Below are positions 2,830 to 55,032 of a stretch of DNA of 64,000 nt, piece by piece; the first letter of the stretch is position 1; every line of letters begins with the position of its first letter. Under the pieces are notes generated by a model. It was not told where the DNA came from. It did not search any database and worked only from the letters and a program-made list of their open reading frames with translations. A program made the position numbers and the translations under genes. This DNA comes from a virus (taxonomy: Duplodnaviria > Caudoviricetes), in IMG/VR virus record IMGVR_UViG_3300028048_000086, positions 1-64,000 of that record, one strand, 5' to 3'.

Positions 2830-3618
2830 TTATTTAGCTGGTTCTGTAGTGCGATAAGAGATGATTGTAAATTGACTCTCATTCAATCCAAGATCAGAAG
2901 CTTTGAGATTCTTCGGAGCGTTTTTGATCTTTAATCCTTTGAGTTTCGTGCAGTTTTCAAACATTCTTTCCCATGTCGTAGCGGAAGTCATGTCGATGTC
3001 ACCAGGAATATTCTCAAGCGATTCACAGCCAGAGAACATTGTCTCAAAATTTTTTCCGCGAGAAGTATCCATTTCAGGGACTTCTTTCAGTGCTGAACAT
3101 CCAGCGAACATCGACCTAAAATTTTCAACTTTTGACGTATTGTATTTCGGTACATTCATAAGTTTGTGGCATCCAACGAATAAGCATTCCATGCTTGTTA
3201 TATTTTTTGTATCAAGCACTGGGGCAGTGACCAATGACGAACATCTTATAAATAGTTGAAGCGAAGTAACCGATGGATCTAATACGATTTTGTCAGGTAC
3301 TTCTTCCTTCGCAAAATCATACCCGTAAATACCGATAATCGAAGAATATCCATTGAGAATTAGATAATGTCCATCTTTAAAATGCTTCGCATCCACTTTC
3401 CCGTCATTATTCCAATCTATATTTTTAGGAACACCATTTAGTACGGCTTTTACGGCTTTAAACGGATACGAAGATTTCTCCATTTGCTCATTTGTTGGTT
3501 TTACAGCTTTTTCAACGCTAATGAGCTCGAAAGTGCTTGGTTCAAGAGAGTGAACATTAATAGGTATGGCATCCTCATCTTTGCTCGCCGAAATAATATC
3601 GATTCCATAGAACTTCAT
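2830..3618 (-). CDS. DUF285/BspA-like surface repeat protein (putative appendage or receptor-binding protein)
   Basis: ~23-aa repeats of the form DTKNITSMECLFVGCHKL / NTSKVENFRSMFAGCSAL / DTSRGKNFETMFSGCESL; AAGGAG RBS. Confidence 0.75.
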   Translation of the reverse strand: MKFYGIDIISASKDEDAIPINVHSLEPSTFELISVEKAVKPTNEQMEKSSYPFKAVKAVLNGVPKNIDWNNDGKVDAKHFKDGHYLILNGYSSIIGIYGYDFAKEEVPDKIVLDPSVTSLQLFIRCSSLVTAPVLDTKNITSMECLFVGCHKLMNVPKYNTSKVENFRSMFAGCSALKEVPEMDTSRGKNFETMFSGCESLENIPGDIDMTSATTWERMFENCTKLKGLKIKNAPKNLKASDLGLNESQFTIISYRTTEPAK

Positions 3619-39182: not shown

Positions 39183-39259
39183 GTTTTCGTTCCTCCTAAA
39201 TACTGTCGTCACTTTATTGCTAACCGTATATTACGGTTTTGACGAGCCGATATGAATTT

Positions 39260-39318: not shown

Positions 39319-42300
39319 TCAGCTCGACATCCCGATGGCATTCGACACCATACGATTAATATGATATTGGCTGGCAGTAGATCCAATCGTACTGCTCATC
39401 GTGATATTTACTGATCCATTCTGCGGCGTCATTCCGGAAGCGGCATTCTGAATAGCTTCTACGGCTTTTTGCTGTCCCTGCGGAGAAGTAGCGTTGACAT
39501 TGATGACGTAACCACTATTCGGGCCTCCACGCATGACATTCAAGTTCGCATCAGAGAGCGATGGAGCCTGCTGCATCTGTGCTACTTGGCTTTCATCAGA
39601 CTGACCACTTTGAGCTTGATCTGCCGGGCCATGATCCGATGTAGAATTCATCGGACCAGAAACATATCCGGAAGTAAGCAATCCGCCGGCGATGCCGATT
39701 GCTCCGGCGAGAATCGGATTTCCGACATGTTCTGTCATTCCGGCAATGCCTTTGATAGCCTTCGCCACTCTATGAGTAGAAGCTCTAACGGCAGCTTCTT
39801 CGATTTCTTCTCTGCGTTTTAAAGCATTGTCTGAATTCTGACGAATGACATCGGCAGCTTCTCTTGCTTTTTCTGTACGAATATCGGCGGCGCTACTACG
39901 ATTTTGAGGAGCTAGTGCATCTTCGTAGATTTTAGAATCAACCCCCATGCTTTTCGCTTGTTGATTGACCATTTCTTCTGTGCTCGTTATGAGCGATTCA
40001 GAAGATCCGCCTTCAATTTTGTACTGGTCATAATCTGGGTTGAGACCATTCTTGGAGATACCGACACGCATTGCCGCACGGAAATTAGCGCTGTTCGGAG
40101 AAGTCATTGTCTCTACAGCGTCATGAACGAGCTGGGCGCCCATCGCGGCTTTCATGCCATTCGTAATTTCTCCACGATTAACGGAAGCAATTTCTTCGGC
40201 GTTCGCGGCGGCATCCTGTCCAAGTTTCCAGAGATAGAAGTCTTTTGCTTTCTCATATATCGGCGTATCCTTATCGAGAACGTTGGACGGTAAACGAGCA
40301 AGTTCTTTTCCGGTACGAGTACTTAAGAGATTATAGTACATCTCGCGAGCTTCATTCGCGACATCACTGACTTCTTCGCCTCTACCGCGTCTATTCATAA
40401 CACCGTAGATACGGCTATTCAATTTCGACAGCTCTTCACTTCGAGTCAAATCACCATGTTTCTCACTCTTACCCGTTAAGGTAGCTTCCTGAATCGCGGC
40501 TACAGTTGTCGTCGCGAGATTTAAGTAACCATGCGTATCTCGATTGCCTTCGAGATTTGCCATGGTGCGCATCCATTCAAAGATCGAAGTATTCAAGCTG
40601 CCAGCTGCTAGTTTCGAAGCATCTGCCTCGATCTTCTGATTAATCAGAGCAGAAGTCTTCGCATAATGCATGGACTCCAGCAAATCTTTCTGCGTGTCTT
40701 CCGTATACTTTCCGCTCGTCCGTACATAGTCGCTCATCGCTCTTAAGTAATCTGTGGATCCTTTTTCAAGACCTTTTTCTTCGGCGATAGGCGCGAAAGC
40801 TTCATTTAGTTTTTCATTTAACTTGGAATATTTCTTTTCTTCTTCAGGAGTGTAGACTCTGTCGAAATCAACGGAATGGCGACCATCATACGTGGCATCC
40901 CGAACAGAGTGCGTATCAAGATCATCCATACGAGGAGAAGCATCGCGGCGATCATCAAACTGGTTGAACGTAGCTGCTGTATGGATCGTAGAACCGATGG
41001 CGTCGCGGAAAGCCTTTCCTCCGTCATCGAGCTCGACAGATACGCCTTCCATTTTCTTGAGAGCTTTGTATCCGGCATAGTCAAGAGAATCCGTGTGGAT
41101 TTTCTTTTCTCCGATATTAATCGTAGCTCCGGAACGAACGACGAGAGCGTCGCCTTTATCGGAGTCAAAGTCACCTTTCTTTTGCATCCAGCCCCTGACA
41201 CCGACAAGAAGCTCATCATCTCCGACTGTATCATTGACGTATAAAGCACTCGCGGCGATAGAAGTATTCTGCTGAGCTGGTTGACGAAGAATATCGGAAA
41301 GAGTACCCGTCGTTTTAACTTCTTCCAGCGTAGCCTTCTTCAACTTCGTAGCCAAATCGGCATTGCCGCCGGTCAGTTCCATGAAGTAGTCGTCGTTGTA
41401 AATAGCCTTCGCAGCATTGTTACCAACGACAGCGTAAGAAAAGTTTAAAGCCTTAGAAGCATCTTTTCTTCCAACATCTGCCATTTTCGACAGGTTGACA
41501 CCTTGCCATTCCAGCTGCGAGAAGTTGCCATCCAGAGAACGCCATTCTCCATTTTCGGTAACGCCGCCAGCGAAATCATGTCCCTGAGCAGTCGCACGAA
41601 TAACGCCATCTTGGAAGTAAGCATTCGACGCTTTCTTGACAACGCCATCTTTGCCTGTCGTCAGCTGCGAGACATGTCCGACAAACTGGTCAATACTTTC
41701 CTGAATTTTTCCGAGAGCTTTTTCACGAGCGCCTTTGACGTCAGCATTTTGCTCGTAGTTATCACTATAATCACGATATTGACGCAAGAGACTAGCAATG
41801 TCACCTGTAAGAATGCCAGGACTCAGTGTGCCATCTTCTCTTTCGAAGATATCTTTCGTAAACGGAAGAGCTAAGTAGCGATTGCTTCTCTTGCCGTAGA
41901 TCTGAGCCTCTTCAGGAAGTTTGTCATCATGAAGATCGATCAGAAGAGGTCTGCCATAGAGCTGATTCGTAAACTCTTCCATACCAGAAGCTCTTGCCTG
42001 AGTATTCAAGTCTTTCAATGAAACGACATTGAATCCGAACTTCTGCATGTCATCGACGGTCAGAGTATTCTTTTTCTGATTAAACTTGCGAGCGACGGAG
42101 AAAGAAAACGCCATATTTTGCGCCAAGACTTTATCAGCCGTGATCTTTGTTGCGCCGGCTTTTTTCATGGTGCCAATGACAGAATCAATCTGTTCTCCTG
42201 TCATGCCTTCGTCAACTAACCTTTGGCGAGCTTTCTGAGACTCTTCTGTCAGCTGTTTATACTGAGGAGCAAATTCTTCTTTGCGTTCTTCCAGCGTCTT

Positions 42301-45300
42301 ATCATAGATACGATCTTCTCCATCCGTATAGAACTGATGAGCTTTAATCGTATCAACCAGAGATTGATCGATATTATCTCCGGCTTTTGTGCCTTTGACA
42401 AATCTCTCGTATAGTTCGTTACCTTTTTCTTCTCCGAGAGAATGAACAAGGCGTTGCTGAATCGTATTTACATAGTCTTCGTTGATTCTATTCGCGAAGA
42501 CGTTTGTCATAATACGCTCGTCAAGTTTCTCAGGCTTCTTGTTCTGACGAGCTGTATCCTTCGTCGTAATACGAAGCATATCTAGATTCTGGAGCTGCCC
42601 GCCACGAGACAATGCCGTATTCGAATATAGATATCTCTGACCGTATTTCTTGGCTTCTTCGTCATTCAGCCTCTGAACTTTTTCGAAAGAGTGAATCTCT
42701 CTTGCGTAGTCGTCTTTTCCTAAGAGCTCGTCTACGGTTTTTCCAGTACTAACTTCCTTTCCTTCCATATCGAATTTGCGATAATATCCGTTATCTAATT
42801 GCTCGATATAGCCGGTGACTTTCTTGCCGCCCTTTGATAGCTCGAAATACTTTTCAGGGCCTTCGCTCTTAAAGTATTTGTGAGCTATCTCATCGTACGC
42901 ATCCCAATCAATAGAACCGTGAGATAACGTAAACGTACCGGTTTTTTCATCAAGTTCAAGATCTGGGCGAACCTTCTTCATTTCACGAAGAATCTCTTGG
43001 TTCGACATGCCACGATCTTTCATAGCATAAAACATGCTTGAAAATGCGGTAGGATCTCCGTGCTTGATCTGTCCGGAGTAGTTGTTCATGACGCCCCAGA
43101 TATGCTGTCCTTCTTGCAGGGCACCGCTGGCCGTCATAACACGTTCGAGCAAGTCTGTCGCTCCATGCCGCTCCGTCATCATGGCATTCGCGAATTCTTC
43201 TATGCTGGAGAATGTTTTTCCAATCGTTTCCCGGATTCTCTTATCGTTCCAGCCACCATCAGTCATCGCATTGAGAGCGATACCGAACTTCGTCTTCGAG
43301 AGATCCTTCGGTGGATTCATCAGTTCCGTAATAAAGTCTGCCGTAACTTCTCTGCCAATTAGGTTCGTTGCCTTAAATTCCGTAAGGACTTTAGCGACTT
43401 TCCGATCTTTCTGCCCGAGACCGTTCATGATAACACGGCCCATCGTCTTCTCGTTATTATCCGAGACTTTGATGTTACCGGACATGTCCATGTCTTCGAG
43501 GAAGTAACGTGCTTTATATGTGTTGTTCGAATTGAAGAGATTCCAGACTCTTTCCTGCCAGCCTTCGCGGCTCGTATCAATCTTATCGAGATTCTCATTG
43601 ATGATTTCGCTGACTCGTTCATCCGACAGGCGCATACGATCCTGGAAGATTCCGAGGCGCAAGAATCCATTTGATTTTGCTAGAACAGGTTTTTCGCCTT
43701 CGTCGTAAGCGCCGAGAACGCTGAACAACTTTTCATCTTTTTTACGGAAGACACCGTTGTTAGAATGGAAATGAACGTTGCCTTCGCTATCAAGTTCGAG
43801 TTCCGGAGTAGCATCGCCGAGATTCGAGCGTTTCATAACAACGTCACGAGCATTGCTTTCAACGGCACGAACTTTATCGACATCTACCTGTTGCTCGTAA
43901 TAGCGATAGGATAGCATCGCATCAGCTGCACGAGAAGTAATTGCGCCAGCGCCTTCATCCGTCATAATTGAGGAAATGCGAGTAAATTCAGCGCTTTCTC
44001 TCGCTGATAGAGATAGAGCTAGAGCATTCGCGCCTTTATCGACGAGAATTTGAAAATCTCTCGTACTCGTAGAAAGACGCCTGCCGATAAACGAGTTTTC
44101 TACTTTATAGCCAATGCTTTTGCCAATTTCTTCGTTACGAGCAGACTCACCGACGGTGCGAATAAGATCTCCGGCCATGCCACCGATTGAATCAAGATAT
44201 TTCAGAGTATCTTCTGAAGCCCTGAAATAAGAAGCTCTCGCTTTCTTGTATTCGATGCCATTCGCACCAACATGGGCATTCTCACCGACATTCTGATTCT
44301 CTTGATAGATACGGTAGAAGCCCTTCGAAGAATGCGTTCCTAGATGACGAGTAAATCCGCGAATCTTGGAATAAACATCGGCATTCGGGCTGCCGTTATT
44401 AATAACTTCCTGTATTGCGTCTTCGAAGAGAGAACCGTGCTCTTGAATAGCAACGACCTGTGCCATCGTAAGATCGCTCAGACGTTTGCCGTCATAAAGC
44501 TCTGTTCCGTCTTTCATGTAAGCTTCATGGGATTTATCCATGAGCTCTTTCAGGATATTATCAGTATCTGAGCCAGTACCTTCGAATTCTTGGAAAGCCT
44601 TGGTATTTGAAAGTTCTCCCAGCTTCTGTACAATATCTCCTGCATAGAAAGATTGCGAAGTCAGGCGATCCTGCTTATTCTTGTCCAAGCTCGTAGAGAA
44701 ATCTCTCCACGTAGCGTTGAACTTGCTGAGAATATAATTGACACCGCCAAGAAGTTCGTTCTCGCCAGCTTTCCTTTCAAGAAAGTCTGTATGGAGAGAG
44801 GCCCCGACATTTCCGGCGGCCTTGCCCCATAATGAATTAACTTGGAGCTTCTTTTCACGGCTTCCTCTGTCGTAGAGGTTAAATAAACCGATAGGGTCTA
44901 CGCGACGAGTATTATTCTTGCCTTGGCGAATAAAGAACGCCCCGTCTTCATAGCGCTCCTTGGTGAAGAATAGCTCTTGAGACTTGCCAGCTTTAAAATC
45001 ATTGATACTGTTGTAGCCCCAGATTTTGCCAGTTTCTTCGTTGTAGCCGATGGCGCCGCCATTTTCATAGATTCCACGAACAAGATCGTGGACGACTTCG
45101 CGAGTATTTGCTCTCTTGATCTGTTGTCCTCTCTGCATGAGTTCAGCGCTCTCTTTCGAGTAGCCCTGAGCCATGAGATTCTTTACGAAGTCCTCGGAAT
45201 CTTCATGAGCGAACCCTGTATTGAATAGAATCTTATCTACGATATTATCGGCGATTTTATTCGTCGCGTTCTCGAATTTCTGCTTCGCAAGTTTCGGATT

Positions 45301-48300
45301 ATCTTTACTATACGAGAATGGGATGATTCCTAGCTTGTTTTTGCCGATACGATCAAGAGTCTCTTCAATCGTTTTCTTCGAGAGTCCTTGGTTTTTCTCC
45401 TTCGAATTTACGACATCATAAGTGCCGATAGGAGACAAGAAGCCTTTCGTCGGGTCTTTCTCACGAGCTTGTTCGAAGCCATGGAGAATCTTGCTCGTGG
45501 CAATATCCGTACTATCATTTGCCAAATCAACGGCATAGTCTTTATCTTCTTCAATGACATGCTTATCAACGAGAAACTTCTGGAAATCGCCGAGAATCTT
45601 GACTTGATTTTCCGGCGTGAAACTCTGAATCTGACGATCGTCGTAGCCCATCTCTTTTAAGAGAGTAGTGGCCATGCCCCATTCGCCACCATGAAGCTTA
45701 AAGGCTTTGATTCTACCTTCCGGAGCTTTGATGCCATTGAATCCGTTAAGATCAACTTCGAAGATATTCTCCATTTCGGAGGCAACACGATATCCTCTGC
45801 GCCACCCAATCGGAGCATTATTCAGTTTTGATAGCTTCGTTACACCTTCATTTGCCTGAAGAACTGCTTGTTCTTGAAGAGCTTGACGAGCATAGCGATA
45901 GTAAATCTTGAAGCTCTTGTCGCGAGTATTGTCTGTGCCGGACTGCTTCTTAGCGAAATCGAGTGCAGCCTGAATCAGACCGAAGTTACGACGGCCATAA
46001 TCTTCTAGCTGTGTCATGTTACTCGCAGTGTTCGAGTACATGTGCATGATGCCGTCGGATTCCCAACCGAAATATTTATAGAGAGTATCCTCAAAAGACT
46101 TCGCCGAAGGTTTATATTTCGGATTATTCGCGATTTCCGTCGCCGTACGTATCGTGCGATCCATCATCTCTTGAGTATATTTGCGACGATATACTTCAAG
46201 ATCAGAACCGGCGGCAGCTACCATATGAGGAGTATCTTCTGGCAGCCCCTGAATCGGACCATAGACTTTCGGGATTTCCTCATCCATATCGGAGATATAA
46301 CGAAGCAACCCGGCGTCTTTCGTGGCGTCGAGTTCTCTCGCTGCTCTAGCGGCCGCATCGTTATCAAACGCCAGCGTGCTTTGAGCTTTTAAGCCCTCAG
46401 CCGTAGGATCGATAATTTCGACTTTTCCCTTGGAATCTGTAGAGTAAAGTCGAAGAGCATTTCTCTCTTCTTTTTTCAAGTCATTAATAACATATTCGCC
46501 ATTCTCGTTGATATGGCCAGCGTATGACATATGACTCAGGCTGAGTCCGATATTATGCGGAGTACCGAATTTCCAAACATCGCTATTGGCGCCAATGGTT
46601 TCAGAATCAGAATATGGAGTTAAATGGATAAAATCTAGAGAACCGAAATCTAATTCAGGATGTGCTTCTATGATGGATTGATATAGTGGATTATCTCTAT
46701 CAATCCTGCCATTGCCCTGAAGAATGTAAAGACCGCGACGACGCTCGCCAGTTTGCTGGAAAAGTTCTTCTTTCGCTCCAGTTCCCGTGATAGAGACAGC
46801 ATCCGATGTACGGATAGTGCCATTCATTGGATCTCCGACGAATGTCAAAATGCCATCTTGGCGATAGCCAGAACGATTTGCGTAAAATACTTCCGTGCCA
46901 TTTGCGCTAAGTCGATCGGCGTCTTTCGGCAACTGATTGATAAGCGAATTCGGGTCATTCGGATTGAATAATCCAGTTCTATAAACCAGCGTCGCTGTTC
47001 CGATGGCGTCTTCTTTCGCGTTATGGGCACCGTTCTGAACTTTCGAGCCATTGATAAGTTCGAAAGCGTGAAGAAGAGCTTCCTGTGTCAGAGGCGTCTT
47101 GCCGGCTTCGCGCATCCATTTCATTTGCTGCGGAAGGAGGTCTTCGTGTCCTTTAAAAAGGTTCCGATAAAATTCAGAGCTATTTCCGACAGCTGCTCTT
47201 TCGACATGGAGATCGTCGAAAACATGATTGAACTTAATAGCGGAGCCGCCGAAGAGCTGATTGACTTCTTCTTTAGCTTTGTCGCTCATATAAGGCGACG
47301 TAGCAAAATAGCTTAAGTTGCGAATATCGAAGACTTCGGTGTTGTGGCCAATTGCTGTTAAGTCATTATCTACGATTGTATGAAGACCGGAAAGAAGTTC
47401 TTTTTCCCATCCACGAACACCGTCAACAGCCGTAGCTTCCTGCTGACGATAGATATCCGTATAAAGTTTGAGACCTTTTTCGACTTCTTCCTTCGAAAAA
47501 CGTATGTCTTCCTGCTCCGCGAAATTATCGAACGTGAAGATGCCTTCACTTGCTCTAGAAGTATTTAATTTCGTCTTCTCATTTCCAGCAAGAGCGAGAC
47601 GGTTCAGCGTAACCTTTTCATCGTTCGTGATTTCCTGACCGGAAAAATAGCGGCGCGAAATATCTTCGATACGCTTCCGCATATCATCGTTGATACCGAT
47701 GATAGAGCCATAAGTATGCTTGATTCCCGTAGAAGCATCGAAAGCGTTATTGGCGATGTCTCCTTGAACATGAGAGAAAGAAAACTCCGTGATGAACTGG
47801 CCTAGTTTTCTTCCGCCCTCATCGTAAGTAGCGCCAAGAGTTTCCAGATCCCATAAGACACTTTCACCGTTATGCTTCAAGATATTAGCGATACCTTGAT
47901 AAGCGGTCGCCGGTGTTTGTGCGACGTTATTCAAGATCCTCTGATAGAAGAGTCTCGGCGTCTGGTTCTTCGGTGATGTTACTGCTTCGATAAATGTATC
48001 TGGCGTGAGCTTCCCGTAAGCATTCTTGACAACTTGAGAAATCAGAGCTTTATCTGAGCTAGTAAGAGCCTGAATAGGTACTCCGATATGGCCGCCTTCA
48101 CCATATTTCGAGACAGTCTGAATTCTACCGGTAAAAATAGGCGCAATACGAGTGGAGAGAGCGTCAGAATCCATCTTGCGCAGATAATCATCAATGAGAG
48201 CGTTCTTTTCTTCCGCGCTCAAACTGTCAATATCATTGACTTCTCTCGTTACTTGCTGGTGTACTCTCCTATTTTTCTCTCTAATCTCTGCTTGTCCACG

Positions 48301-48339
48301 GACGTACGCAGCTACGCTGTCTCCTTCGTATATGCTCAT
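39319..48339 (-). CDS. Giant virion protein: DEDDh exonuclease domain plus putative single-chain two-barrel RNA polymerase
   Basis: Exonuclease motifs WDLETLG (D164/E166), GHNTEVFD (D338), HNAKED (H439/D444). Beta'-like GKDG (2229), RQP (2352) and GDFDSD (D2390). Weaker beta-like DEGAG (1461) and K1624/K1631. C-terminal hydrophobic segment ILAGAIGIAGGLL. Confidence 0.7.
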   Translation of the reverse strand: MSIYEGDSVAAYVRGQAEIREKNRRVHQQVTREVNDIDSLSAEEKNALIDDYLRKMDSDALSTRIAPIFTGRIQTVSKYGEGGHIGVPIQALTSSDKALISQVVKNAYGKLTPDTFIEAVTSPKNQTPRLFYQRILNNVAQTPATAYQGIANILKHNGESVLWDLETLGATYDEGGRKLGQFITEFSFSHVQGDIANNAFDASTGIKHTYGSIIGINDDMRKRIEDISRRYFSGQEITNDEKVTLNRLALAGNEKTKLNTSRASEGIFTFDNFAEQEDIRFSKEEVEKGLKLYTDIYRQQEATAVDGVRGWEKELLSGLHTIVDNDLTAIGHNTEVFDIRNLSYFATSPYMSDKAKEEVNQLFGGSAIKFNHVFDDLHVERAAVGNSSEFYRNLFKGHEDLLPQQMKWMREAGKTPLTQEALLHAFELINGSKVQNGAHNAKEDAIGTATLVYRTGLFNPNDPNSLINQLPKDADRLSANGTEVFYANRSGYRQDGILTFVGDPMNGTIRTSDAVSITGTGAKEELFQQTGERRRGLYILQGNGRIDRDNPLYQSIIEAHPELDFGSLDFIHLTPYSDSETIGANSDVWKFGTPHNIGLSLSHMSYAGHINENGEYVINDLKKEERNALRLYSTDSKGKVEIIDPTAEGLKAQSTLAFDNDAAARAARELDATKDAGLLRYISDMDEEIPKVYGPIQGLPEDTPHMVAAAGSDLEVYRRKYTQEMMDRTIRTATEIANNPKYKPSAKSFEDTLYKYFGWESDGIMHMYSNTASNMTQLEDYGRRNFGLIQAALDFAKKQSGTDNTRDKSFKIYYRYARQALQEQAVLQANEGVTKLSKLNNAPIGWRRGYRVASEMENIFEVDLNGFNGIKAPEGRIKAFKLHGGEWGMATTLLKEMGYDDRQIQSFTPENQVKILGDFQKFLVDKHVIEEDKDYAVDLANDSTDIATSKILHGFEQAREKDPTKGFLSPIGTYDVVNSKEKNQGLSKKTIEETLDRIGKNKLGIIPFSYSKDNPKLAKQKFENATNKIADNIVDKILFNTGFAHEDSEDFVKNLMAQGYSKESAELMQRGQQIKRANTREVVHDLVRGIYENGGAIGYNEETGKIWGYNSINDFKAGKSQELFFTKERYEDGAFFIRQGKNNTRRVDPIGLFNLYDRGSREKKLQVNSLWGKAAGNVGASLHTDFLERKAGENELLGGVNYILSKFNATWRDFSTSLDKNKQDRLTSQSFYAGDIVQKLGELSNTKAFQEFEGTGSDTDNILKELMDKSHEAYMKDGTELYDGKRLSDLTMAQVVAIQEHGSLFEDAIQEVINNGSPNADVYSKIRGFTRHLGTHSSKGFYRIYQENQNVGENAHVGANGIEYKKARASYFRASEDTLKYLDSIGGMAGDLIRTVGESARNEEIGKSIGYKVENSFIGRRLSTSTRDFQILVDKGANALALSLSARESAEFTRISSIMTDEGAGAITSRAADAMLSYRYYEQQVDVDKVRAVESNARDVVMKRSNLGDATPELELDSEGNVHFHSNNGVFRKKDEKLFSVLGAYDEGEKPVLAKSNGFLRLGIFQDRMRLSDERVSEIINENLDKIDTSREGWQERVWNLFNSNNTYKARYFLEDMDMSGNIKVSDNNEKTMGRVIMNGLGQKDRKVAKVLTEFKATNLIGREVTADFITELMNPPKDLSKTKFGIALNAMTDGGWNDKRIRETIGKTFSSIEEFANAMMTERHGATDLLERVMTASGALQEGQHIWGVMNNYSGQIKHGDPTAFSSMFYAMKDRGMSNQEILREMKKVRPDLELDEKTGTFTLSHGSIDWDAYDEIAHKYFKSEGPEKYFELSKGGKKVTGYIEQLDNGYYRKFDMEGKEVSTGKTVDELLGKDDYAREIHSFEKVQRLNDEEAKKYGQRYLYSNTALSRGGQLQNLDMLRITTKDTARQNKKPEKLDERIMTNVFANRINEDYVNTIQQRLVHSLGEEKGNELYERFVKGTKAGDNIDQSLVDTIKAHQFYTDGEDRIYDKTLEERKEEFAPQYKQLTEESQKARQRLVDEGMTGEQIDSVIGTMKKAGATKITADKVLAQNMAFSFSVARKFNQKKNTLTVDDMQKFGFNVVSLKDLNTQARASGMEEFTNQLYGRPLLIDLHDDKLPEEAQIYGKRSNRYLALPFTKDIFEREDGTLSPGILTGDIASLLRQYRDYSDNYEQNADVKGAREKALGKIQESIDQFVGHVSQLTTGKDGVVKKASNAYFQDGVIRATAQGHDFAGGVTENGEWRSLDGNFSQLEWQGVNLSKMADVGRKDASKALNFSYAVVGNNAAKAIYNDDYFMELTGGNADLATKLKKATLEEVKTTGTLSDILRQPAQQNTSIAASALYVNDTVGDDELLVGVRGWMQKKGDFDSDKGDALVVRSGATINIGEKKIHTDSLDYAGYKALKKMEGVSVELDDGGKAFRDAIGSTIHTAATFNQFDDRRDASPRMDDLDTHSVRDATYDGRHSVDFDRVYTPEEEKKYSKLNEKLNEAFAPIAEEKGLEKGSTDYLRAMSDYVRTSGKYTEDTQKDLLESMHYAKTSALINQKIEADASKLAAGSLNTSIFEWMRTMANLEGNRDTHGYLNLATTTVAAIQEATLTGKSEKHGDLTRSEELSKLNSRIYGVMNRRGRGEEVSDVANEAREMYYNLLSTRTGKELARLPSNVLDKDTPIYEKAKDFYLWKLGQDAAANAEEIASVNRGEITNGMKAAMGAQLVHDAVETMTSPNSANFRAAMRVGISKNGLNPDYDQYKIEGGSSESLITSTEEMVNQQAKSMGVDSKIYEDALAPQNRSSAADIRTEKAREAADVIRQNSDNALKRREEIEEAAVRASTHRVAKAIKGIAGMTEHVGNPILAGAIGIAGGLLTSGYVSGPMNSTSDHGPADQAQSGQSDESQVAQMQQAPSLSDANLNVMRGGPNSGYVINVNATSPQGQQKAVEAIQNAASGMTPQNGSVNITMSSTIGSTASQYHINRMVSNAIGMSS

Positions 48340-48459: not shown

Positions 48460-51400
48460 TTAATTCGCTTGCATCTGAAGACTTTGATTAACACGTTCCT
48501 GGACATCTTTCATTCCGAGCATCGTCTTAATCGATGCTTTTATCGAAGTAGCTCCGCCGGATTGGCCGGCCTCGACGGAGATATCAACGTTCTTCAAGCC
48601 TTGTCCTTTTAGTATCTTTTCGATACGGTTTTTGACGGTCGTAGAATTATGATCTTGCTTATGTATATCCTGAATCCGAGGAGCATTCGCTACTTCCGGT
48701 TTATCCAGCTCAGATTCATAGAATCCGAAATCGCCTAATTGCAGTCCTTGATTCACAACACTCTGGACTTCAGAATTCTTCAGGTCATACTGCGGAGCCC
48801 ATCCAGCCCAGTTTTCCTGTGGAAGAGCATGCTTCTTGAAATATGTTTCGTTATCTACTTGCTTATCTTCTTTCATGCCCCAAGCCATTTTGAGGGCCCG
48901 ATTCAAGAACGGAGATACTTTATTCAGGATTTCCTCTCGACGAGATTTATTACGCTCCTTGACAAATTCCATGAAATACTCGCGGTCTGTCTGCGGAAGT
49001 GCCGTGATAATCTGTGACCACGTAGCATCTTCTTTTAAGCCGTACATCGTATTTTCTGCCGCTTGCTTATAAAGCAGGGCAGTACGTGTCCATTTACCAC
49101 CTGGAACAACGAGTTTTTCTCCTTCGAGGTCGTTGATACGGCTCGTGAGCATACTCGTCAGACGATCTCTTTCTTCACTTTCAGGAGCAGAACGAACAAG
49201 ATCTTTTTTAAGAGACTGGAAGTGTTTAATCGCGAGACGATTCTGTTTGGTCGCTTCTTCTCGACGTTCGATGACATCTTCGATATCGACGTCTTCTTCA
49301 TCTTTCGCTTTTTTGGCGGCTTTCTTGTAGAGCCCCATGAACTTGAGATATGTCAGGCGATCATAGTAATCCTGCATCTCCCATTTCTTTTTCGTTCTTT
49401 GAGGTACCCATTCGCCGTTTGGATTCGTAGCCGTACGATATAATGCGCCTACGGCAGCACCTATCAAAGCACCCTTGCCTCGGCTCTTCTTAAAGAAACG
49501 AGCAACTTCTTGCCCGACATTCGCCGCAGAAAGTGTTTCATCGGCGTAACTATTGCCTCCTGTAAGAGCGTGGCCTAACGTAGAAATCGCACTTCCATGA
49601 CGAGCCCATTCCATGGCTTTCTTGGAGTTACCGAGATACAGTAGCTGAGATAAAGCCGCTCCGATAAATGCACCTCGATCAGAAAGAAGATAAGCCGCTC
49701 CGATTCCGTGACGCATGCCAGGAGATAACCCTTCAATTTCTTCTGAAATACGATAAGCTCCACCGATCAATCCCGTAAAAGCTGAGCGATCATGGAAAGA
49801 ACGCTCCAATGCAGGACGCAAGAACGTCTCAATTGGATGAGACCAAGTCTGATAAGGAGTGCCGTAAACTTGCTCTGCTTCATAAGATTCTAGCGGAGAA
49901 CGAACTCTCAAGAACTGGTCAGAGATCCACGGGAGATCCAGGTGAGCGATAAATTCAGAAGCGTAGGCTACACCTTTTTGAACGACGCCCATATCGCCAA
50001 GAACTGCCGGGGTGCTATTATCGCTTTTACGAATCGCGGCATCGCCGGCGGAAATCATCTGCTTTCCGACATTTTGTCCGTCGATGTAAACAGCTGCGTT
50101 GATACTACCGATAGAATCATTGTTCGTCTGATTATCCGAATCTTCGTCAACGGCAACAGTAACTGTTTGACCAACGTGAATATATCTACCGAGAACATCC
50201 TTCATGGATTCATTCGGATTTCCTCGGACACTCGCACCGGCAATCTTGAAGATAGAGTTGCCACTACGGAACTTGCCGTATCCAAGAACTTCAGAAACGA
50301 CGACATTCTTATACTGTAATCCGTGTCCTACGACTTTATAATCGTAGAAATCATGTTGCTTGCCTTGCTGGTTAACTCTCTGACGAATCTCGCTCATCTC
50401 ATCGATGAGTTCAGGATCCGTAACAGTCTTCTTAGCGATGTCTCTCCACATCTTATATTCAGGAGAAAAAGGAGCGATATCCGCTAGAATTTTCATTCTA
50501 TCAAAAGCACCGTATTTTCCTCCGAATTGATCAGGGTGCAGTTGATTCAGACTTTCGTATCCTTTACCAGGTAAACGCATTTCTCCTTTCGGCACGGCCG
50601 TAAACGGATCACCATAGCGGAAACGATCTGGGAGCCAATCAGGCATCTCATTCATGAGAGGATTGATACGAGTATTACGTCGATAATCAGGAATAAAACG
50701 ACGCATGATTTCTGCGGCTGGGCCGCCGAGACCGCCGAGATTCTCATCCCAAAAAGTACGGCTAAATGAAGTGATGTCTTGTCCCGTCGCGATACGTTTC
50801 TTATTATCGACACCGAACCCGGTAGCCTCGCCGACACCATAACCGTAAATACCAGCTATTAAGCGCCAAGAAACTGCCGCATTCTGAACGAACGAAGAAC
50901 CTTTACCTTGATTAATCAGATCCGTAACAGTATCAGGATCATTTAATAAGTTCATGGCGTCGACTGGACGATAGTTTTTGAGTTTCAGCCCCTGAGCCAT
51001 TCCTTCTTCCGCATCGATTTCGTCCTGAGACATCGTGCGAACGTTCTTTCCGGCCTTCGCTTTCGTAGCATCATTCATTTGACGAAGCCAATTTGCCGGA
51101 TTATGATCTCTCAGTATATTTTCGAGGTCTTCTTTAATACCGAGAGTATCGCCTTTCGTTAAACGATTAATCTCTAGACGATCTGCGTCATATAGATGTC
51201 GAGCATTTTTATTTACCGGTTGCCCATCTTTATCAGCGACGTAAGAATCTTTCCCGTCAGCTTTCTGAACGACGTAATTCTGTTGGTTCGGGACTGGGCC
51301 TCCGAAAACAGCGTAATCAATCGCTTCTTTCCAACCGATATGATTATTCTGGTTAACCGTTTCAAGAGCATCAGCAGCTGATTTTCCTCCCGTGAGAGAA

Positions 51401-54400
51401 ATGCCGCCTATCGTTCCTCCCGCTCCGGAACCAGAACCTAAGCCGAAACCGCCTTCTCCGTTCGGCGCTCCAGTAGCCCCGATATTCGGTCCGCCATTTC
51501 CATAACGAGTGCCAAGTAATTGGCCATTCTTAAATTGGACCGAAAGAACGTTTGTGTCATCCGTAGGATGATCATAAGGAACGAAGTTAATCGGGTCGAA
51601 GTTGCTTCCACCGATCTGGATATAATTTTCTCCGGCGAGATCTCTTGCTTTCTGCTTCGTATATTCATTGATTCCATGAAGCAGTGAAAGAGGATCGATG
51701 CCATTGACATTTCGATAGTCAATATCCGTAAACGGAATCGTATGAAGACTCTTTTGAGGTTTTATCAGCTCTCCGATCGTAGGATTCAGTATCGCGCCCC
51801 ACGGAGTACCATCGGCGAACATATGACCCGTTAATTCGTACGGGCGGTCGTCTTTATGTTTTTCTTCTAACCAATAAGGATCTAGGATTCCGAGAATCGG
51901 AGAAAATGGATTCGTCGGAGTAGGCAAGAGTGAATGTGACCACTTATCAAAGTATCCATCATAAAGAGATTTATCTTCGTAGTCTGATTGAATACGACGA
52001 ACGAAAGTGGGCTCGAAATACTGGATCGCGCCGCCACGAGCTTCATTGACGCCGCCAAATGTCCACCAAGCGCCCTTGCGAACCGGCGTATATCCTGACT
52101 CGTACCATTTACGGCGCTCATCCGCGCTCTGGAATTCATCATGATCTCCCCAGTACTGCATAATCGGATTAATCGATTTTTCACCTTTCATCCAATCCGT
52201 AATACCGAAGGTATCCATCAATTTACGTGAAGCAATATCGACGTTCGCTACACCTTGAGCGGCAGCGCCGGTAATCGACATTCCGGTAACTTCCTGAGAA
52301 GTATCATCTGCCCATTCATAATACGTAGCGGCAACGCCGATCGGGATCACACGCTTCAGCATAATAGCCGATGCTAGATCGGCGGTAGACCCCATATTAT
52401 CTTTCGAAAAGCCTAAACCGACTTTATTCATTTCATCGGAGAGGCGAGAAAGCATAAAGTATGGAATCTGCGTATATTCCGATACGCTTTCCATGCTATC
52501 GCGGCCTGCGTAGAACTGTTTGAAAAACTGTTTGACGTTCGCTTTCGTTTTCGTCCAGCTATTAAGGTCGTTCAGCATATCTAGCGGGCCCATCGCGTCA
52601 CGCATTGTGACCCATGAGTTATATCCGATAGGATTGCCGATTTCGTCCGGCTTTTCGTAGACCGTATCCGTAAAATGGGAATTCTCTTTTCTCATGTTAC
52701 GGACTTCGCTGCGAAGTGTACTAGTTAGCTCATCATCTCCTACGAAGATATCATGAGCTCTTTCGACTGCTTGCCAACCTTCGCCGATACTATTAGAACC
52801 ATCATCTTCGCCGATATCGCGGCCGAGATTCACCATATCATCGAAATATGATGTCATTGCTGAACGCTTTGCATTAATTTCTTCTACGCCACTGAGATCA
52901 GCTTTTTTAATTAAATCCAGCGCTTGCTGAAAATCTGGCAAATCCGTATCAGGAACTCTGGAAGCACTCTCTTTCGCGAAAGCTTCACGAGTTAGCACGG
53001 TACGAAGATATTCATCGACTGTTTCGGTAGCGTTCCCGGTATCTGTACCGACGATATCATTGATAGAAGAACCGACCCTCGTATTTGAGCGAGAGTTCTT
53101 TTGTTTGACGATCTCGAAAACAGAACGAGGATTCGTCTGAAGACGGTTCGACACATCTTTCAGTTCTGAATCAGAAATATAATCGAGATCCGCGTTCTTT
53201 ATGAAATCGATAAGCTCTTCATGATTTGCCGACTGTAATGCTTCGAAAATCCTTTTCGCGTCTTTATTCTCGGCAGCTGCCGCGAGTTTGCCGGCAGATT
53301 CTCTCGTAACTCCATACGTATTATCATGCATGAAATCACGAATCGTTTTGACTTTGAAGAGCTCTCCGAGACGAGTCTCTCGTTGCTCTGCTGTTTCTCT
53401 TTGATAGCTTCCTCCAAAAGCATCGATGGTATCATGAAGGGTATTCAGCTCTTCATTCGTGGCATCAGTATATGAATCGATAATATTGCCGAAGTAATCC
53501 TCAGAATCGTATTTATTGGCCATTGCCTTGATACGTTCCAAGGAAGAATTCATACCGGAGAATTCATCGCGGTCTTGTCCGATATCGAAGAATCGTAAAA
53601 TACGATTATCGTTTCGTTTATATCGGACATCGCCTGCCATCTGCTTCAAGATATTCTTGCGGGCTCCGTATTCGCCGGAAGCCATATGCGTTCGGATACC
53701 GCGAAGTTCTTCTATTTCTTCTAGGCCGTTCTCGGTAAATCTGAAATAACGAGAACTGGTATGAAAAATCGTAGAATCTAGCTGTGAACTACCGTGATTT
53801 TCTTTATTGTTCGTCAAAGCGGCGAGGACTGGGTCATAGGAGCCTTTGAATTCTAGAGAAAACTTCGGAGCAAAGCGAGCGTATTCAAAATCTCTCGCTT
53901 TCAAAACTTTGCCGGGGAGGGTGTCGGCAACACCTTTTATTAGCGAGTCAACGAATTTACGAGAGCCTTCTTTGGAATAGATATTTCCGTTCGCGTCTTT
54001 TCCGAGGCCACCGACATCCGCCGTGATATTTAAGAAGCGCTCTTCGAAATTCGTTCCTTTCTGAGCATCGATGCGGGCATAGAATTTCCGCATATCTTCC
54101 ATATCTTGAATCGGATCGAATTTCTTTGCCGCGTGATGCGCTCCGCCAGTTTTGTACGTCGATACTTCGATTTTATCTTTATTTTTTAGGAGGTCTCTGA
54201 CCGTGACTTCGTTCTGCCCTTGGATGAGGTCAACGAGTTTCCCGAAAGCGCCTTTCTTTCTCGTCGCTGTTCCGAAGATCTCTTCCATTTCGTCAAGAGA
54301 AGCCATTTCTTTCATCAGAAATTTATTCTGGCGTCTCCAATCAAGCATGAAAGGCGTACGATGTTCTTTTGAGTACGCCTTCATATCGTTTACGAGCATC

Positions 54401-55032
54401 TGGGCAAAGTCTTTCTGAGTCCCCGTAAAGCCAGCTCGTTTTATTTGCTCATTTACGATGTTTTCTTTGTGAACACCTGAAGCAACATTGCTGATAAAAG
54501 AACGAAATCTCTGCGCTTCGTTCGCATCCATCCTGGAAGCCTGAACGCCAGCTTCGAGATTTTCTGCCGCATGATTAATTAGTCTCTGCGTCCATGCACT
54601 CCCGGCATCGGAAATACCTTCTGTATTCCGCATCGTGCGTATCTGACGCAAATGACTAAAGAGAGAACGAGATTCTTCAGGGTTCAAGCGAACTTTGCCA
54701 CGCGCTGTTTCAGCCGCTTCTTTATATGCTGCTTCCGCTGTTTTACGTAGTCCTCTTACGTCGTCAATCGTCCAGTCTTCCATGGCTTTTGAAAAACTGG
54801 AATTCGTCGCCATTCGACGAGCGAACGTCGCACCAAAATTAAGCCCCCGTTCAGCAACGGAGGCTAATCCAGTACGTCTAGCGAGCATCTTACCTGTCTT
54901 CCAAGCAATCGCGGCTCCAACGCTTTTACCTAGGAAACTCAGATATGGATTCTCTCCACTCTGACGTTCGTTCATTTCTCTTTGACGGCGGCGCTGCTCT
55001 TCAGCGGCTAATTGTTTATCTTCGTCTGCCAA
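48460..55032 (-). CDS. Tape measure-like giant protein with degenerate SNase-like region
   Basis: 2190 aa, TTG start; immediately downstream of the tail chaperones (canonical tape-measure position); helical with Ala/Gly-rich hydrophobic stretches; VVSEVLGYG...FKIAG...AAVYIDGQNVGKQMISAG resembles the SNase OB fold. Confidence 0.6.
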   Translation of the reverse strand: MADEDKQLAAEEQRRRQREMNERQSGENPYLSFLGKSVGAAIAWKTGKMLARRTGLASVAERGLNFGATFARRMATNSSFSKAMEDWTIDDVRGLRKTAEAAYKEAAETARGKVRLNPEESRSLFSHLRQIRTMRNTEGISDAGSAWTQRLINHAAENLEAGVQASRMDANEAQRFRSFISNVASGVHKENIVNEQIKRAGFTGTQKDFAQMLVNDMKAYSKEHRTPFMLDWRRQNKFLMKEMASLDEMEEIFGTATRKKGAFGKLVDLIQGQNEVTVRDLLKNKDKIEVSTYKTGGAHHAAKKFDPIQDMEDMRKFYARIDAQKGTNFEERFLNITADVGGLGKDANGNIYSKEGSRKFVDSLIKGVADTLPGKVLKARDFEYARFAPKFSLEFKGSYDPVLAALTNNKENHGSSQLDSTIFHTSSRYFRFTENGLEEIEELRGIRTHMASGEYGARKNILKQMAGDVRYKRNDNRILRFFDIGQDRDEFSGMNSSLERIKAMANKYDSEDYFGNIIDSYTDATNEELNTLHDTIDAFGGSYQRETAEQRETRLGELFKVKTIRDFMHDNTYGVTRESAGKLAAAAENKDAKRIFEALQSANHEELIDFIKNADLDYISDSELKDVSNRLQTNPRSVFEIVKQKNSRSNTRVGSSINDIVGTDTGNATETVDEYLRTVLTREAFAKESASRVPDTDLPDFQQALDLIKKADLSGVEEINAKRSAMTSYFDDMVNLGRDIGEDDGSNSIGEGWQAVERAHDIFVGDDELTSTLRSEVRNMRKENSHFTDTVYEKPDEIGNPIGYNSWVTMRDAMGPLDMLNDLNSWTKTKANVKQFFKQFYAGRDSMESVSEYTQIPYFMLSRLSDEMNKVGLGFSKDNMGSTADLASAIMLKRVIPIGVAATYYEWADDTSQEVTGMSITGAAAQGVANVDIASRKLMDTFGITDWMKGEKSINPIMQYWGDHDEFQSADERRKWYESGYTPVRKGAWWTFGGVNEARGGAIQYFEPTFVRRIQSDYEDKSLYDGYFDKWSHSLLPTPTNPFSPILGILDPYWLEEKHKDDRPYELTGHMFADGTPWGAILNPTIGELIKPQKSLHTIPFTDIDYRNVNGIDPLSLLHGINEYTKQKARDLAGENYIQIGGSNFDPINFVPYDHPTDDTNVLSVQFKNGQLLGTRYGNGGPNIGATGAPNGEGGFGLGSGSGAGGTIGGISLTGGKSAADALETVNQNNHIGWKEAIDYAVFGGPVPNQQNYVVQKADGKDSYVADKDGQPVNKNARHLYDADRLEINRLTKGDTLGIKEDLENILRDHNPANWLRQMNDATKAKAGKNVRTMSQDEIDAEEGMAQGLKLKNYRPVDAMNLLNDPDTVTDLINQGKGSSFVQNAAVSWRLIAGIYGYGVGEATGFGVDNKKRIATGQDITSFSRTFWDENLGGLGGPAAEIMRRFIPDYRRNTRINPLMNEMPDWLPDRFRYGDPFTAVPKGEMRLPGKGYESLNQLHPDQFGGKYGAFDRMKILADIAPFSPEYKMWRDIAKKTVTDPELIDEMSEIRQRVNQQGKQHDFYDYKVVGHGLQYKNVVVSEVLGYGKFRSGNSIFKIAGASVRGNPNESMKDVLGRYIHVGQTVTVAVDEDSDNQTNNDSIGSINAAVYIDGQNVGKQMISAGDAAIRKSDNSTPAVLGDMGVVQKGVAYASEFIAHLDLPWISDQFLRVRSPLESYEAEQVYGTPYQTWSHPIETFLRPALERSFHDRSAFTGLIGGAYRISEEIEGLSPGMRHGIGAAYLLSDRGAFIGAALSQLLYLGNSKKAMEWARHGSAISTLGHALTGGNSYADETLSAANVGQEVARFFKKSRGKGALIGAAVGALYRTATNPNGEWVPQRTKKKWEMQDYYDRLTYLKFMGLYKKAAKKAKDEEDVDIEDVIERREEATKQNRLAIKHFQSLKKDLVRSAPESEERDRLTSMLTSRINDLEGEKLVVPGGKWTRTALLYKQAAENTMYGLKEDATWSQIITALPQTDREYFMEFVKERNKSRREEILNKVSPFLNRALKMAWGMKEDKQVDNETYFKKHALPQENWAGWAPQYDLKNSEVQSVVNQGLQLGDFGFYESELDKPEVANAPRIQDIHKQDHNSTTVKNRIEKILKGQGLKNVDISVEAGQSGGATSIKASIKTMLGMKDVQERVNQSLQMQAN

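Follow-up and report, generated by a model that had tools for sequence, protein, structure and literature searches.

Virion-packaged two-barrel RNA polymerases (RNAPs), such as gp66 of crAss-like phages and gp96 of phage P23-45, are recent discoveries. The protein described here, if it is such a polymerase, would be the first known to us with a nuclease module of its own; the sole parallel would be PolD, a DNA polymerase whose DP1 is Mre11-like. For gp66, we know of no established account of how a single-stranded template comes to the enzyme inside the cell. The gp66 enzyme transcribes ssDNA efficiently and dsDNA weakly or not at all (bioRxiv 10.1101/2020.03.07.982082). In Thermus phage P23-45, gp96 is a tape measure with an N-terminal two-barrel virion RNAP, and the paper describing it reports no nuclease, the words "exonuclease" and "nuclease" being absent from its text (bioRxiv 10.1101/2022.12.01.518664). 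A tape measure has likewise been assigned in Bacillus phage 0305phi8-36, to orf146 (PMC2147016).

According to our analysis, the giant ORF at 39319..48339 on the minus strand of the window (the whole 64,000-nt stretch of DNA analyzed here) encodes a 3006-aa protein, P0001, of a large uncultured phage, whose source record is a fragment of 118 kb (CheckV 46%). Residues ~150 to 475 of P0001 almost certainly form a genuine DEDDh domain, and judging from its motifs the C-terminal part is probably a two-barrel RNAP. Our literature search found no paper describing an exonuclease-two-barrel RNAP fusion, in agreement with the sequence-only reading of this DNA, which knew of no characterized two-barrel RNAP carrying such a domain.

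Within a contractile-tail module, P0001 is encoded at the tape-measure position: the tail tube and chaperone-size genes precede it, and the baseplate hub follows. The gene order is tail sheath (62018-63949, upstream of P0001; phrog_16991, E 6e-49), tube paralogues, small ORFs, g2190 (gp145-like), g3006 (P0001), and g2840 (gp147 hub-like), and the locus is syntenic with gp145-gp146-gp147 of 0305phi8-36 and with CDS26-27-32 of Moorella phage MTATph1. The phage that carries it has a long, contractile tail and belongs to the 0305phi8-36 lineage; its own genome also encodes a YonO-like ORF ending in DFDGD. A packaging or ejection domain common to the three neighboring giants was considered and rejected, since there is no similarity among them. 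The C-terminal tail of P0001, whose consensus is kept across the family and which has no match in the Bacillus or Moorella phage giants, contains a hydrophobic Gly/Ala-rich segment read from the sequence (aa 2874-2895; 39655..39720, minus strand), which may insert in the membrane.

The DEDDh (DnaQ-like) 3'-5' exonuclease domain, supported by an AF2 model, structure matches, and a family profile, covers aa 140-475 (46915..47922, on the minus strand like all features of P0001 given below). Conservation was counted in 62 aligned representatives at no more than 50% identity, otherwise 22-42% identical. The sequence-only reading had claimed a complete DEDDh motif set with a long insertion between ExoI and ExoII, and all three motifs lie at the residues it named, nt 47008-47850 being exactly the codons D444 to D164. 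ExoI reads WDLETLG (aa 163-169; 47833..47853), with D164 and E166 conserved at 100%, and the subsequent strand beta-2, ITEFSF (47776..47793; T184, E185, and F186 conserved at 81-89%), aligns with the DnaQ-type I-x-E strand. ExoII reads GHNTEVFD (aa 331-338; 47326..47349), with N333 conserved at 95%, F337 at 85%, and D338 at 100%, and it is followed by a D-T-L-x-x-x-R-type motif, FDDLHVER (47197..47223; D375 at 97%, R381 at 68%), which aligns with DTLSLSRE of PDB entry 9mrc. ExoIII, AHNAKEDA (aa 438-445; 47005..47028), with H439 at 98% and D444 at 97%, belongs to the "h" subtype, H-x4-D, as opposed to Y-x3-D. The seven key residues D164, E166, N333, D338, D375, H439, and D444 are conserved at 95-100%; the acidic positions on which the reading hinged are among them, and this degree of conservation argues that the motif set of P0001 did not arise by chance. 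The insertion, too, is present. It is specific to this family, separates the ExoI sheet from ExoII with ~75 residues folded into helices and a small hairpin (~aa 234-309; 47413..47640), and is itself conserved, with R247, G252, G266, G289, and Q300 at 87-98% in the 62-sequence alignment; the same insertion is seen in the alignments of gp095 of phage WH1 and gp034 of phage KLEB27-3.

The RNase H-like fold expected of such a domain is predicted with confidence. A first AF2 model from a 3-sequence alignment was poor (pLDDT 56.7) and was discarded in favor of one from a 36-row alignment, which reached a pLDDT of 95.5 and a pTM of 0.92. When this model was compared with 48,161 PDB chains in an unbiased, Foldseek-independent VIA scan, the top 50 were all DEDD exonuclease domains, the best being Pol III epsilon (Z 11.4, rmsd 3.0, 167/174 residues aligned), and every top match of a Foldseek search against the PDB was likewise a DEDD exonuclease. 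VIA-align gave Z scores of 11.4-11.5 to epsilon, TREX2, PolC exo, ExoI, and DinG exo, and only 167-191 of the 336 model residues superpose on canonical exonucleases, in keeping with the insertion. The structural neighbors include DNA and RNA exonucleases alike, with tied Z scores. Together, the DnaQ fold and the near-invariant motifs support the DnaQ/RNase T-type assignment.

In the profile search against DEDDh families, proposed along with that assignment, neither P0001 nor any of 17 diverse homologues matched PF00929 (RNase_T) above the gathering score. The family profile, searched against the PDB, retrieved the TREX1 homologue 9mrc as the best sequence match (E 0.026), with ExoI, ExoII, the DTL motif, and ExoIII all aligned. 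Elsewhere in the phage's own 118-kb record, PF00929 was not found. Single-sequence searches of Pfam and PHROGs with the N-terminus, the whole of P0001, or its parts detected neither domain; no match came from phmmer of P0001 against the PDB, from an IMG/VR pattern scan, or from 50,697 phage records searched by tblastn with the exonuclease region, and hhalign of the exonuclease family with the single sequence of E. coli DnaQ aligned ExoI only. Since Pfam does not recognize the domain, it is deemed a divergent, DnaQ-like subfamily with a conserved, lid-like insertion, its membership being predicted from fold and motifs. From the residues retained, the domain is very probably catalytically active.

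A search of 1.84 billion representatives found 61 matches, nearly all in proteins of 2500-3800 aa with the domain at ~aa 150-480. Clustered at 50% identity, the family has 61 clusters or more, to which the cultured WH1 and KLEB27-3 are added. The exonuclease and the R-x-P...DxDxD signature occur together in 54/54 giant homologues, some of them ~20% identical, so that the homologous giants do keep the fusion. A partial, word-index search for the polymerase part without the exonuclease returned seven proteins, all seven of them with the exonuclease.

In its C-terminal part, P0001 matches the beta'-barrel signature R-x-P...(35-39 aa)...D-x-D-x-D. The beta'-like LRQPAQQNTS (R2352, P2354, S2360; 41260..41289) conforms to R-x-P-x-x-(Y/Q)-x-x-S, a pattern present in 54/54 giants with K for R in two, and the metal-binding type motif DFDSD (D2390, D2392, D2394; 41158..41172) begins 38 residues after R2352; the Pro and the three Asp are invariant in the 54 giants. 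Upstream, the paired lysines K1624 and K1631, with E1630 (43447..43470), are invariant in 17 diverse giants and are candidates for the second, beta-like barrel. The signature lies ~1900 residues C-terminal of the exonuclease in the same chain. In profile searches, neither PF00623 (RNA_pol_Rpb1_2) nor any other RNAP profile was found in P0001 or 17 homologues, Pfam showed no recurrent family in the 17 diverse giants, and the ESM Atlas returned no usable match for aa 1400-2800. The family profile matched phiKZ gp55 weakly (E 1.3), and the full-length family HMM gave nothing significant against E. coli RpoB/RpoC and phiKZ gp55/56/71-74, or against phi14:2 gp076-078 and the phage's own YonO-like ORFs; with hhalign, the same set yielded weak alignments at the level of the catalytic loop only. 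The virion RNAP proposed in the sequence-only reading is plausible but less firm than the exonuclease, the signature being constant in the giants while PF00623 matches are sub-threshold and confined to the cultured homologues.

These cultured homologues, vB_BceM_WH1 gp095 and vB_BauM_KLEB27-3 gp034, are ~20-25% or less identical to P0001 and were missed by tblastn, and are deposited as "virion structural protein" and "structural protein," respectively, with neither domain annotated. They share the architecture of P0001, with the exonuclease at aa 75-414 and the catalytic loop at ~aa 1880-2000, and their genes are likewise flanked by a gp145-like and a hub-like giant. The exonuclease HMM matches both at the N-terminus (33.9 bits in WH1 gp095 and 25.7 bits in KLEB27-3 gp034), and so does the catalytic-loop HMM at the loop (21.9 and 29.2 bits), which reads NRYPT...ADxDGD and is closer than that of P0001 to the cellular NRAPTLH...NADFDGD. 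PF00623, the only recurrent Pfam match in the Bacillus phage homologues, falls exactly on the motif stretch at 16.0 bits in KLEB27-3 and 13.5 bits in WH1 (cut-off 25.3).

More distant are 0305phi8-36 gp146, recorded as "hypothetical tape measure protein" and identified as a virion protein by mass spectrometry, and CDS0027 (CDS27) of Moorella phage MTATph1, whose genes both occupy the corresponding position, with homologues of the two flanking giants on either side. Their exonuclease lies mid-protein (~aa 1196-1703 in gp146 and ~844-1070 in CDS27), whereas that of P0001 is N-terminal. DEDDh motifs are present in both proteins. CDS27 passes Pfam RNase_T (24.2 against a cut-off of 24.0 bits) and is also matched by the family exonuclease HMM; in gp146, the assignment is based on low scores, ~10 bits in total. 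Neither protein has a DxDxD motif or a match to the catalytic-loop HMM, so both apparently keep the exonuclease without the polymerase motif.

We infer that P0001 is carried by the virion and reaches the cell together with the DNA or immediately before it, and that the exonuclease would then work on a 3' end of the phage DNA as it comes in. We put the chance that the phage's own end is the target at about even, and the explanation taken as a whole, which includes it, stands equally in the balance. A role on DNA ends rather than in RNA synthesis fits the apparent retention of the exonuclease in gp146 and CDS27. In the version that we prefer, the 3'-ended strand would be resected at the entering end, giving the fused polymerase a single-stranded template; since gp66 prefers ssDNA templates, an exonuclease on the chain of an RNAP would have a rationale. 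This template generation, as one form of action on the DNA end, is put forward tentatively, and a resection-coupled transcription, in which one virion protein strips a strand at the genome end and then transcribes the strand exposed, is possible at best. In a second version, resection of terminal repeats would ready the ends for annealing and circularization. The geometry at the end speaks against the template version, as a 3'-5' exonuclease at a duplex end spares the 5'-ended strand and transcription would run towards the terminus, which is useful only if early genes point outwards; the record here is a fragment (CheckV 46%).

The exonuclease might instead be an injected counter-defense or host-takeover nuclease degrading host nucleic acids with free 3' ends, independently of the polymerase. 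We consider this unlikely; the targets would be the nicked or broken chromosome, DNA or RNA products of defense systems, and primers. The domain does sit in a protein that, from its tape-measure position, is probably the first into the cell; its structural neighbors include the nonprocessive DNA degraders TREX1/2, ExoI, and ExoX as well as the CBASS effector Cap18; and it seems to persist in relatives lacking the polymerase motif. However, the one or few copies in each virion, tethered to a giant chain, would be ill suited to degrading nucleic acids in bulk, and no defense-related genes were seen near P0001 in the 64,000-nt window.

It is quite unlikely that the C-terminal part is not a polymerase at all, the giant then being a tape measure or ejection protein with an exonuclease and its RxP...DxDxD a metal site or a structural element. 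The absence of any database profile reaching threshold on this region, the weak hhalign support, and the positional relatives gp146 and CDS27 without the motif all favor such a reading, but it would have to accommodate three invariant Asp, an R-x-P at canonical spacing, and upstream paired lysines in sequences ~20% identical, as well as the near-canonical Bacillus loops under PF00623 and a P0001 loop in register with that of gp66, a proven vRNAP.

Very unlikely, in our view, is an RNA 3'-end editor that proofreads or trims the nascent transcripts of the fused polymerase. Precedents exist: nsp14 ExoN, also a DEDDh enzyme, edits RNA 3' ends for the coronavirus replicase, and ERI-1/QIP-type DEDDh enzymes accompany eukaryotic two-barrel RdRPs. 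The strict coupling of the two signatures in the 54 giants would suit an editor, as would the RNA-acting 3'hExo, ERI2, REXO2, QIP, and RNase T among the structural matches (Z 7.8-10.2). Against it, the active site of a two-barrel RNAP normally takes care of cleaving backtracked RNA, the two signatures are separated by ~1900 residues of chain, and transcript proofreading as the main role is disfavored because gp146 and CDS27 appear to keep the exonuclease without DxDxD. Nothing specific suggests that the domain has lost catalysis and retains the fold alone, as a structural or nucleic-acid-binding module, although decayed domains such as the exonuclease-like domain of Pol alpha are among the matches, and five catalytic residues plus the ExoII Asn conserved at 95-100% in 62 sequences so divergent make this highly improbable.

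Across a whole phage family, the chain of a predicted RNAP retains a proofreading-type exonuclease that is apparently active, and in the 0305phi8-36 lineage the giants recorded as "hypothetical tape measure" can be reannotated as putative enzyme carriers. Should the exonuclease prepare the DNA end as it enters, a new first step of infection would be defined; if resection-coupled transcription is true, infection could start without promoter melting, and the template supply of ssDNA-preferring virion RNAPs in vivo would be explained. Two family members infect culturable Bacillus hosts, so direct testing is possible.

Among known enzymes, the exonuclease of P0001 is closest in fold to DnaQ/epsilon, TREX1/2, PolC-exo, ExoI, and SaDinG-exo, of the DEDDh branch of the DnaQ-like superfamily (PF00929, RNase_T; Z 10.3-11.5, rmsd 3.0-3.7 A, with 167-194 residues aligned and nearly the whole reference domains spanned), and it shares with them the motif order D-x-E, N-x3-F-D, D-(T/D)-L, H-x4-D. 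It differs from them in an identity of just 14-20%, in its own ~75-residue insertion and extra helices before ExoIII, and in being embedded in a 3000-aa virion-locus protein, whereas those enzymes are standalone or carried on a DNA polymerase or helicase.

On the polymerase side, gp66 of Cellulophaga phage phi14:2 (crAss-like virion RNAP, PDB 6VR4 family) is likewise a giant single chain encoded among structural genes, and both proteins show R-x-P-x-Q-x-x-x-S followed after 38-39 residues by DFDxDK, R1322...D1361-FDID of gp66 being in register. P0001 has no PHROG match, the family HMM gave no significant score on gp66, and hhalign with crAss-like vRNAPs aligned the catalytic loop only, weakly (P 0.013). 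Membership in the crAss-like gp66 family was rejected, as there is no profile homology beyond the loop and the likeness is at the motif level only. An exonuclease domain was found neither in gp66 nor in its neighbors gp076 and gp078, and phi14:2 is a podovirus-like crassvirus, while the P0001 phage is a long-tailed myovirus. P23-45 gp96, instead, resembles P0001 in placing a two-barrel polymerase module within a giant protein at the tape-measure position of a phage with a very long tail, the module of P0001 being predicted from motif evidence. In gp96 the polymerase is N-terminal, whereas in P0001 the N-terminus is taken by the exonuclease and the polymerase motif lies at ~aa 2350-2394. Like the P0001 phage, P23-45 also encodes a second, nonvirion YonO-like RNAP elsewhere in its genome.

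According to our analysis, the 3006-aa ORF P0001 (39319..48339, minus strand) in the window carries all three motifs of a DnaQ/RNase T-type (DEDDh) 3'-5' exonuclease that the sequence-only reading had claimed, at the residues it named: ExoI is WDLETLG (aa 163-169; D164, E166), ExoII is GHNTEVFD (aa 331-338; N333, D338), and ExoIII is AHNAKEDA (aa 438-445; H439, D444). The interval 47008-47850 starts and ends, to the base, with the codons of D444 and D164. Across 62 aligned domain sequences, which otherwise share just 22-42% identity with P0001, the acidic residues of the set are conserved (D164, E166, and D338 at 100%, D375 and D444 at 97%), as are H439 (98%) and N333 (95%). D375 belongs to an F-D-D-L-x-x-x-R stretch, the counterpart of the D-T-L-x-L-x-R motif found downstream of ExoII in many enzymes of the DnaQ type; in PDB 9mrc, it aligns with DTLSLSRE. 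At the sequence level, the domain is shown to be catalytically complete and under strong purifying selection.

The exonuclease domain was not seen by Pfam, PHROGs, or phmmer against the PDB in single-sequence searches, and neither tblastn against 50,697 phage records nor an IMG/VR scan returned a match for this region. A word-index search recovered seven homologues of P0001 (2882-3200 aa, 36-97% identity), all with the three motifs. A profile of aa 140-475 built from three sequences (the window and the relatives L001 and L002), searched exhaustively against 1.84 billion cluster representatives, matched 61 proteins at E <= 0.001 and 51 at <= 1e-10, nearly all of 2500-3800 aa and with the match at ~aa 150-480; a few are short and appear to be truncated at contig ends. 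Since neither P0001 nor any of 17 diverse relatives gives a Pfam match over the domain, the domain is a divergent DEDDh subfamily, recognisable by fold and motifs only.

AlphaFold2 modelled the domain with a pLDDT of 56.7 from a 3-row alignment and of 95.5 (pTM 0.92) from a 36-row alignment, and the fold predicted in the latter is DnaQ-like, so that the expectation of an RNase H-like fold was not refuted. Almost all the Foldseek matches listed from the PDB were DEDD exonucleases (E 2e-3 to 5e-2, probabilities mostly 0.9-1.0), including the SaDinG exonuclease domain, RNase T, TREX1/2, PolC-exo, REXO2/Orn, and Pop2. VIA-align on Foldseek candidates gave Z 11.5 for TREX2, Z 11.3 for a Cas2-fused DnaQ domain, and Z 11.4 for the epsilon exonuclease domain (rmsd 3.0 A, 167/174 residues). 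In a Foldseek-independent scan of 48,161 PDB representatives, epsilon ranked first (Z 11.4) and the best 50 matches were all DnaQ-like exonuclease domains. Profile searching led to the same superfamily: the best PDB sequence match of the full-length family profile was an exonuclease, the TREX1 homologue Plex9.1 (9mrc, E 0.026), in an alignment covering ExoI, ExoII, DTL, and ExoIII. Of the 336 modelled residues, just 167-191 can be superposed on canonical exonucleases; the remainder is made up of extra helices before ExoIII and a conserved insertion (~aa 234-309), which corresponds to the long insertion reported between ExoI and ExoII. In BFVD, the top structural match, at E 7e-9 and TMq 0.61, was a 1257-residue piece of a viral protein, followed at E 2.6e-7 by a virus fragment with the automatic name 'YprB ribonuclease H-like domain-containing protein'. 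A0A7R7G2L5_1 and A0A8S5RKK9 are the only viral predicted structures in BFVD that match the whole domain including the insertion; one of them carries the YprB auto-name, marked (Fragment), which means that automatic annotation has already touched on the exonuclease domain in a fragment. Motif conservation and predicted fold together support the DEDDh identity: the domain belongs to the DnaQ-like DEDDh superfamily, though it fails the curated Pfam profile. Neither of the two refuting outcomes named by the sequence-only reading, absence of an RNase H-like fold or unconserved acidic residues, was seen. We consider it nearly certain that the DEDDh domain is real, and it is predicted, with good confidence, to be active.

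Exonuclease and polymerase motif are both kept in 54/54 full-length homologous giants, the latter being R-x-P-x-x-(Y/Q)-x-x-S, then ~38 residues, then D-x-D-(S/G/T/A)-D, with its three Asp and its Pro invariant. Upstream of the R-x-P motif, a lysine pair (K1624, K1631) is likewise invariant, as are other charged residues. HMMER and hhalign comparisons of the family with E. coli beta/beta', the phiKZ RNAP subunits, the phage's own YonO-like RNAP, and gp66, the crAss-like virion RNAP of Cellulophaga phage phi14:2, were not significant. The best local hhalign alignment, against gp66 alone or a nine-sequence crAss-like RNAP alignment (P 0.013), falls on the catalytic loop of gp66, where R1322-x-P...D1361-FDID-K is in register with R2352-x-P...D2390-FDSD-K of P0001. 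This part of P0001 resembles gp66 and beta' by motif but lies outside the gp66 family by sequence. The polymerase reading is well supported at motif level, and the proposed fusion to a putative virion RNAP is plausible, with a beta'-type loop throughout the giants but no significant RNAP profile match. Conservation of both motifs shows an exonuclease permanently fused to a chain with a predicted beta'-type catalytic loop; that its partner is a two-barrel polymerase is quite probable.

The minus-strand gene order is sheath (62018-63949; phrog_16991, E 6e-49), tube paralogues, small ORFs, a 2190-aa giant (48460-55032), the 3006-aa giant, and a 2840-aa giant (30690-39212). The 2190-aa protein has no recognisable domain and no similarity to the other two; it is homologous to gp145 of Bacillus phage 0305phi8-36 and CDS26 of Moorella phage MTATph1 (E down to 1e-63). 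The 2840-aa protein matches phrog_20474 'endolysin', a profile of 1954 positions (E 1.5e-188), and is homologous to MTATph1 CDS32 and to 0305phi8-36 gp147, a baseplate hub with peptidoglycan-degrading domains. Since the flanking giants are gp145/gp147 and CDS26/CDS32 homologues, P0001 holds the gp146 slot, and its gene is shown to sit where a contractile tail module has its tape-measure gene. In GenBank, gp146 is a 'hypothetical tape measure protein; identified as virion protein by mass spectrometry', and Hardies et al. assigned it as tape measure from tail length (PMC2147016). The conserved C-terminal tail of the P0001 family (39319-39720, minus strand, aa ~2874-3006), in which a hydrophobic segment rich in Gly and Ala precedes P-x-L-S-D ... 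G-Y-x-I-N-(I/V)-x-A, was not found in the giants of the Bacillus and Moorella phages and could be a membrane-insertion or assembly signal. Between tube-like segments lies an ORF (60388-61269, minus strand) matching phrog_4645 phage endonuclease (E 7e-16) and, weakly, LAGLIDADG_3, which fits an intron-borne homing endonuclease.

In a 15-sequence database, the exonuclease HMM matched gp095 of Bacillus phage vB_BceM_WH1 (2515 aa; gene at L019:7898-15445) at aa 82-414 (33.9 bits, E 1.8e-11), gp034 of vB_BauM_KLEB27-3 (2434 aa; L020:8121-15425) at aa 75-414 (25.7 bits, E 5e-9), Moorella CDS27 (1309 aa; CDS0027, L018:8946-12875) at aa 844-1070 (22.4 bits, E 5e-8), and, weakly, gp146 (2537 aa; L017:9869-17482) at aa 1196-1703 (10.2 bits total, E 2.7e-4). 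The gp095 and gp034 scores would stay significant even against a million sequences, and collinear D-x-E, N...D, and H-x4-D occur in all four proteins. CDS27 independently passes Pfam RNase_T (24.2 bits versus a 24.0 cut-off), and through it the P0001 family is transitively linked to PF00929. The catalytic-loop HMM also matches gp095 (21.9 bits) and gp034 (29.2 bits), whose loops near aa 1930-2000, NRYPT...(~37 aa)...ADHDGD and ADYDGD, respectively, are close to the cellular NRAPTLH...NADFDGD; PF00623 (Rpb1 domain 2) falls on the same loop below threshold (13.5 and 16.0 bits versus 25.3). Because both HMMs match, the predicted exonuclease-polymerase architecture is present in these cultured Bacillus phages, with the DEDDh domain N-terminal in proteins deposited as structural protein only, and WH1 and KLEB27-3 are tractable model systems for such giants. 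In gp146 and CDS27, the DEDDh motifs lie mid-protein, and neither DxDxD nor a catalytic-loop HMM match was found. In MTATph1, CDS0027 is followed (L018:12972-16302) by transposase CDS0028 and the short ORFs CDS0029-31; an insertion element may interrupt the middle giant.

As for function, we favour DNA-end processing at the start of infection, a reading that we regard as evenly balanced. The giant would be ejected together with the DNA or just before it, and the exonuclease would process the 3' end of the entering genome. In the preferred version, which is tentative, resection would give the fused polymerase a single-stranded template; ssDNA and denatured DNA are efficient templates for gp66, and native duplex is transcribed weakly or not at all (bioRxiv 10.1101/2020.03.07.982082). 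One caveat to this template model is that the strand left by a 3'-5' exonuclease is the 5'-ended one, on which transcription would run towards the terminus. A second version, rather unlikely, is that the exonuclease prepares ends for terminal-repeat annealing and circularisation, which would suit the placement of ParA/ParB genes next to the giants of relatives. Such ParA/ParB-like genes adjoin the giant-protein block in several relatives (the contigs encoding P0005 and P0006; L001:18856-20824), which suggests a plasmid-like maintenance stage in the phage group. A role purely in RNA proofreading is argued against by the apparent retention of the exonuclease in the polymerase-less positional relatives gp146 and CDS27.

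In the full-text literature that could be searched, which covers a minority of subscription journals, and in papers on N4 vRNAP, gp66, P23-45 gp96, 0305phi8-36, and a jumbo-phage domain survey, we found no virion RNAP, two-barrel RNAP, or tape measure protein described as carrying an exonuclease; the statement that no characterised two-barrel RNAP carries a DEDDh domain stands within that scope. In P23-45, a virion two-barrel RNAP is fused to the tape measure protein and a second, YonO-like polymerase serves later genes (bioRxiv 10.1101/2022.12.01.518664). A YonO-like polymerase is also found in 0305phi8-36 (PMC2147016), and the genome of the present phage, a 118-kb fragment (CheckV 46%), has a YonO-like ORF ending in DFDGD. 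Both modules of P0001 are of known kinds; what is new is their conserved combination and its setting.
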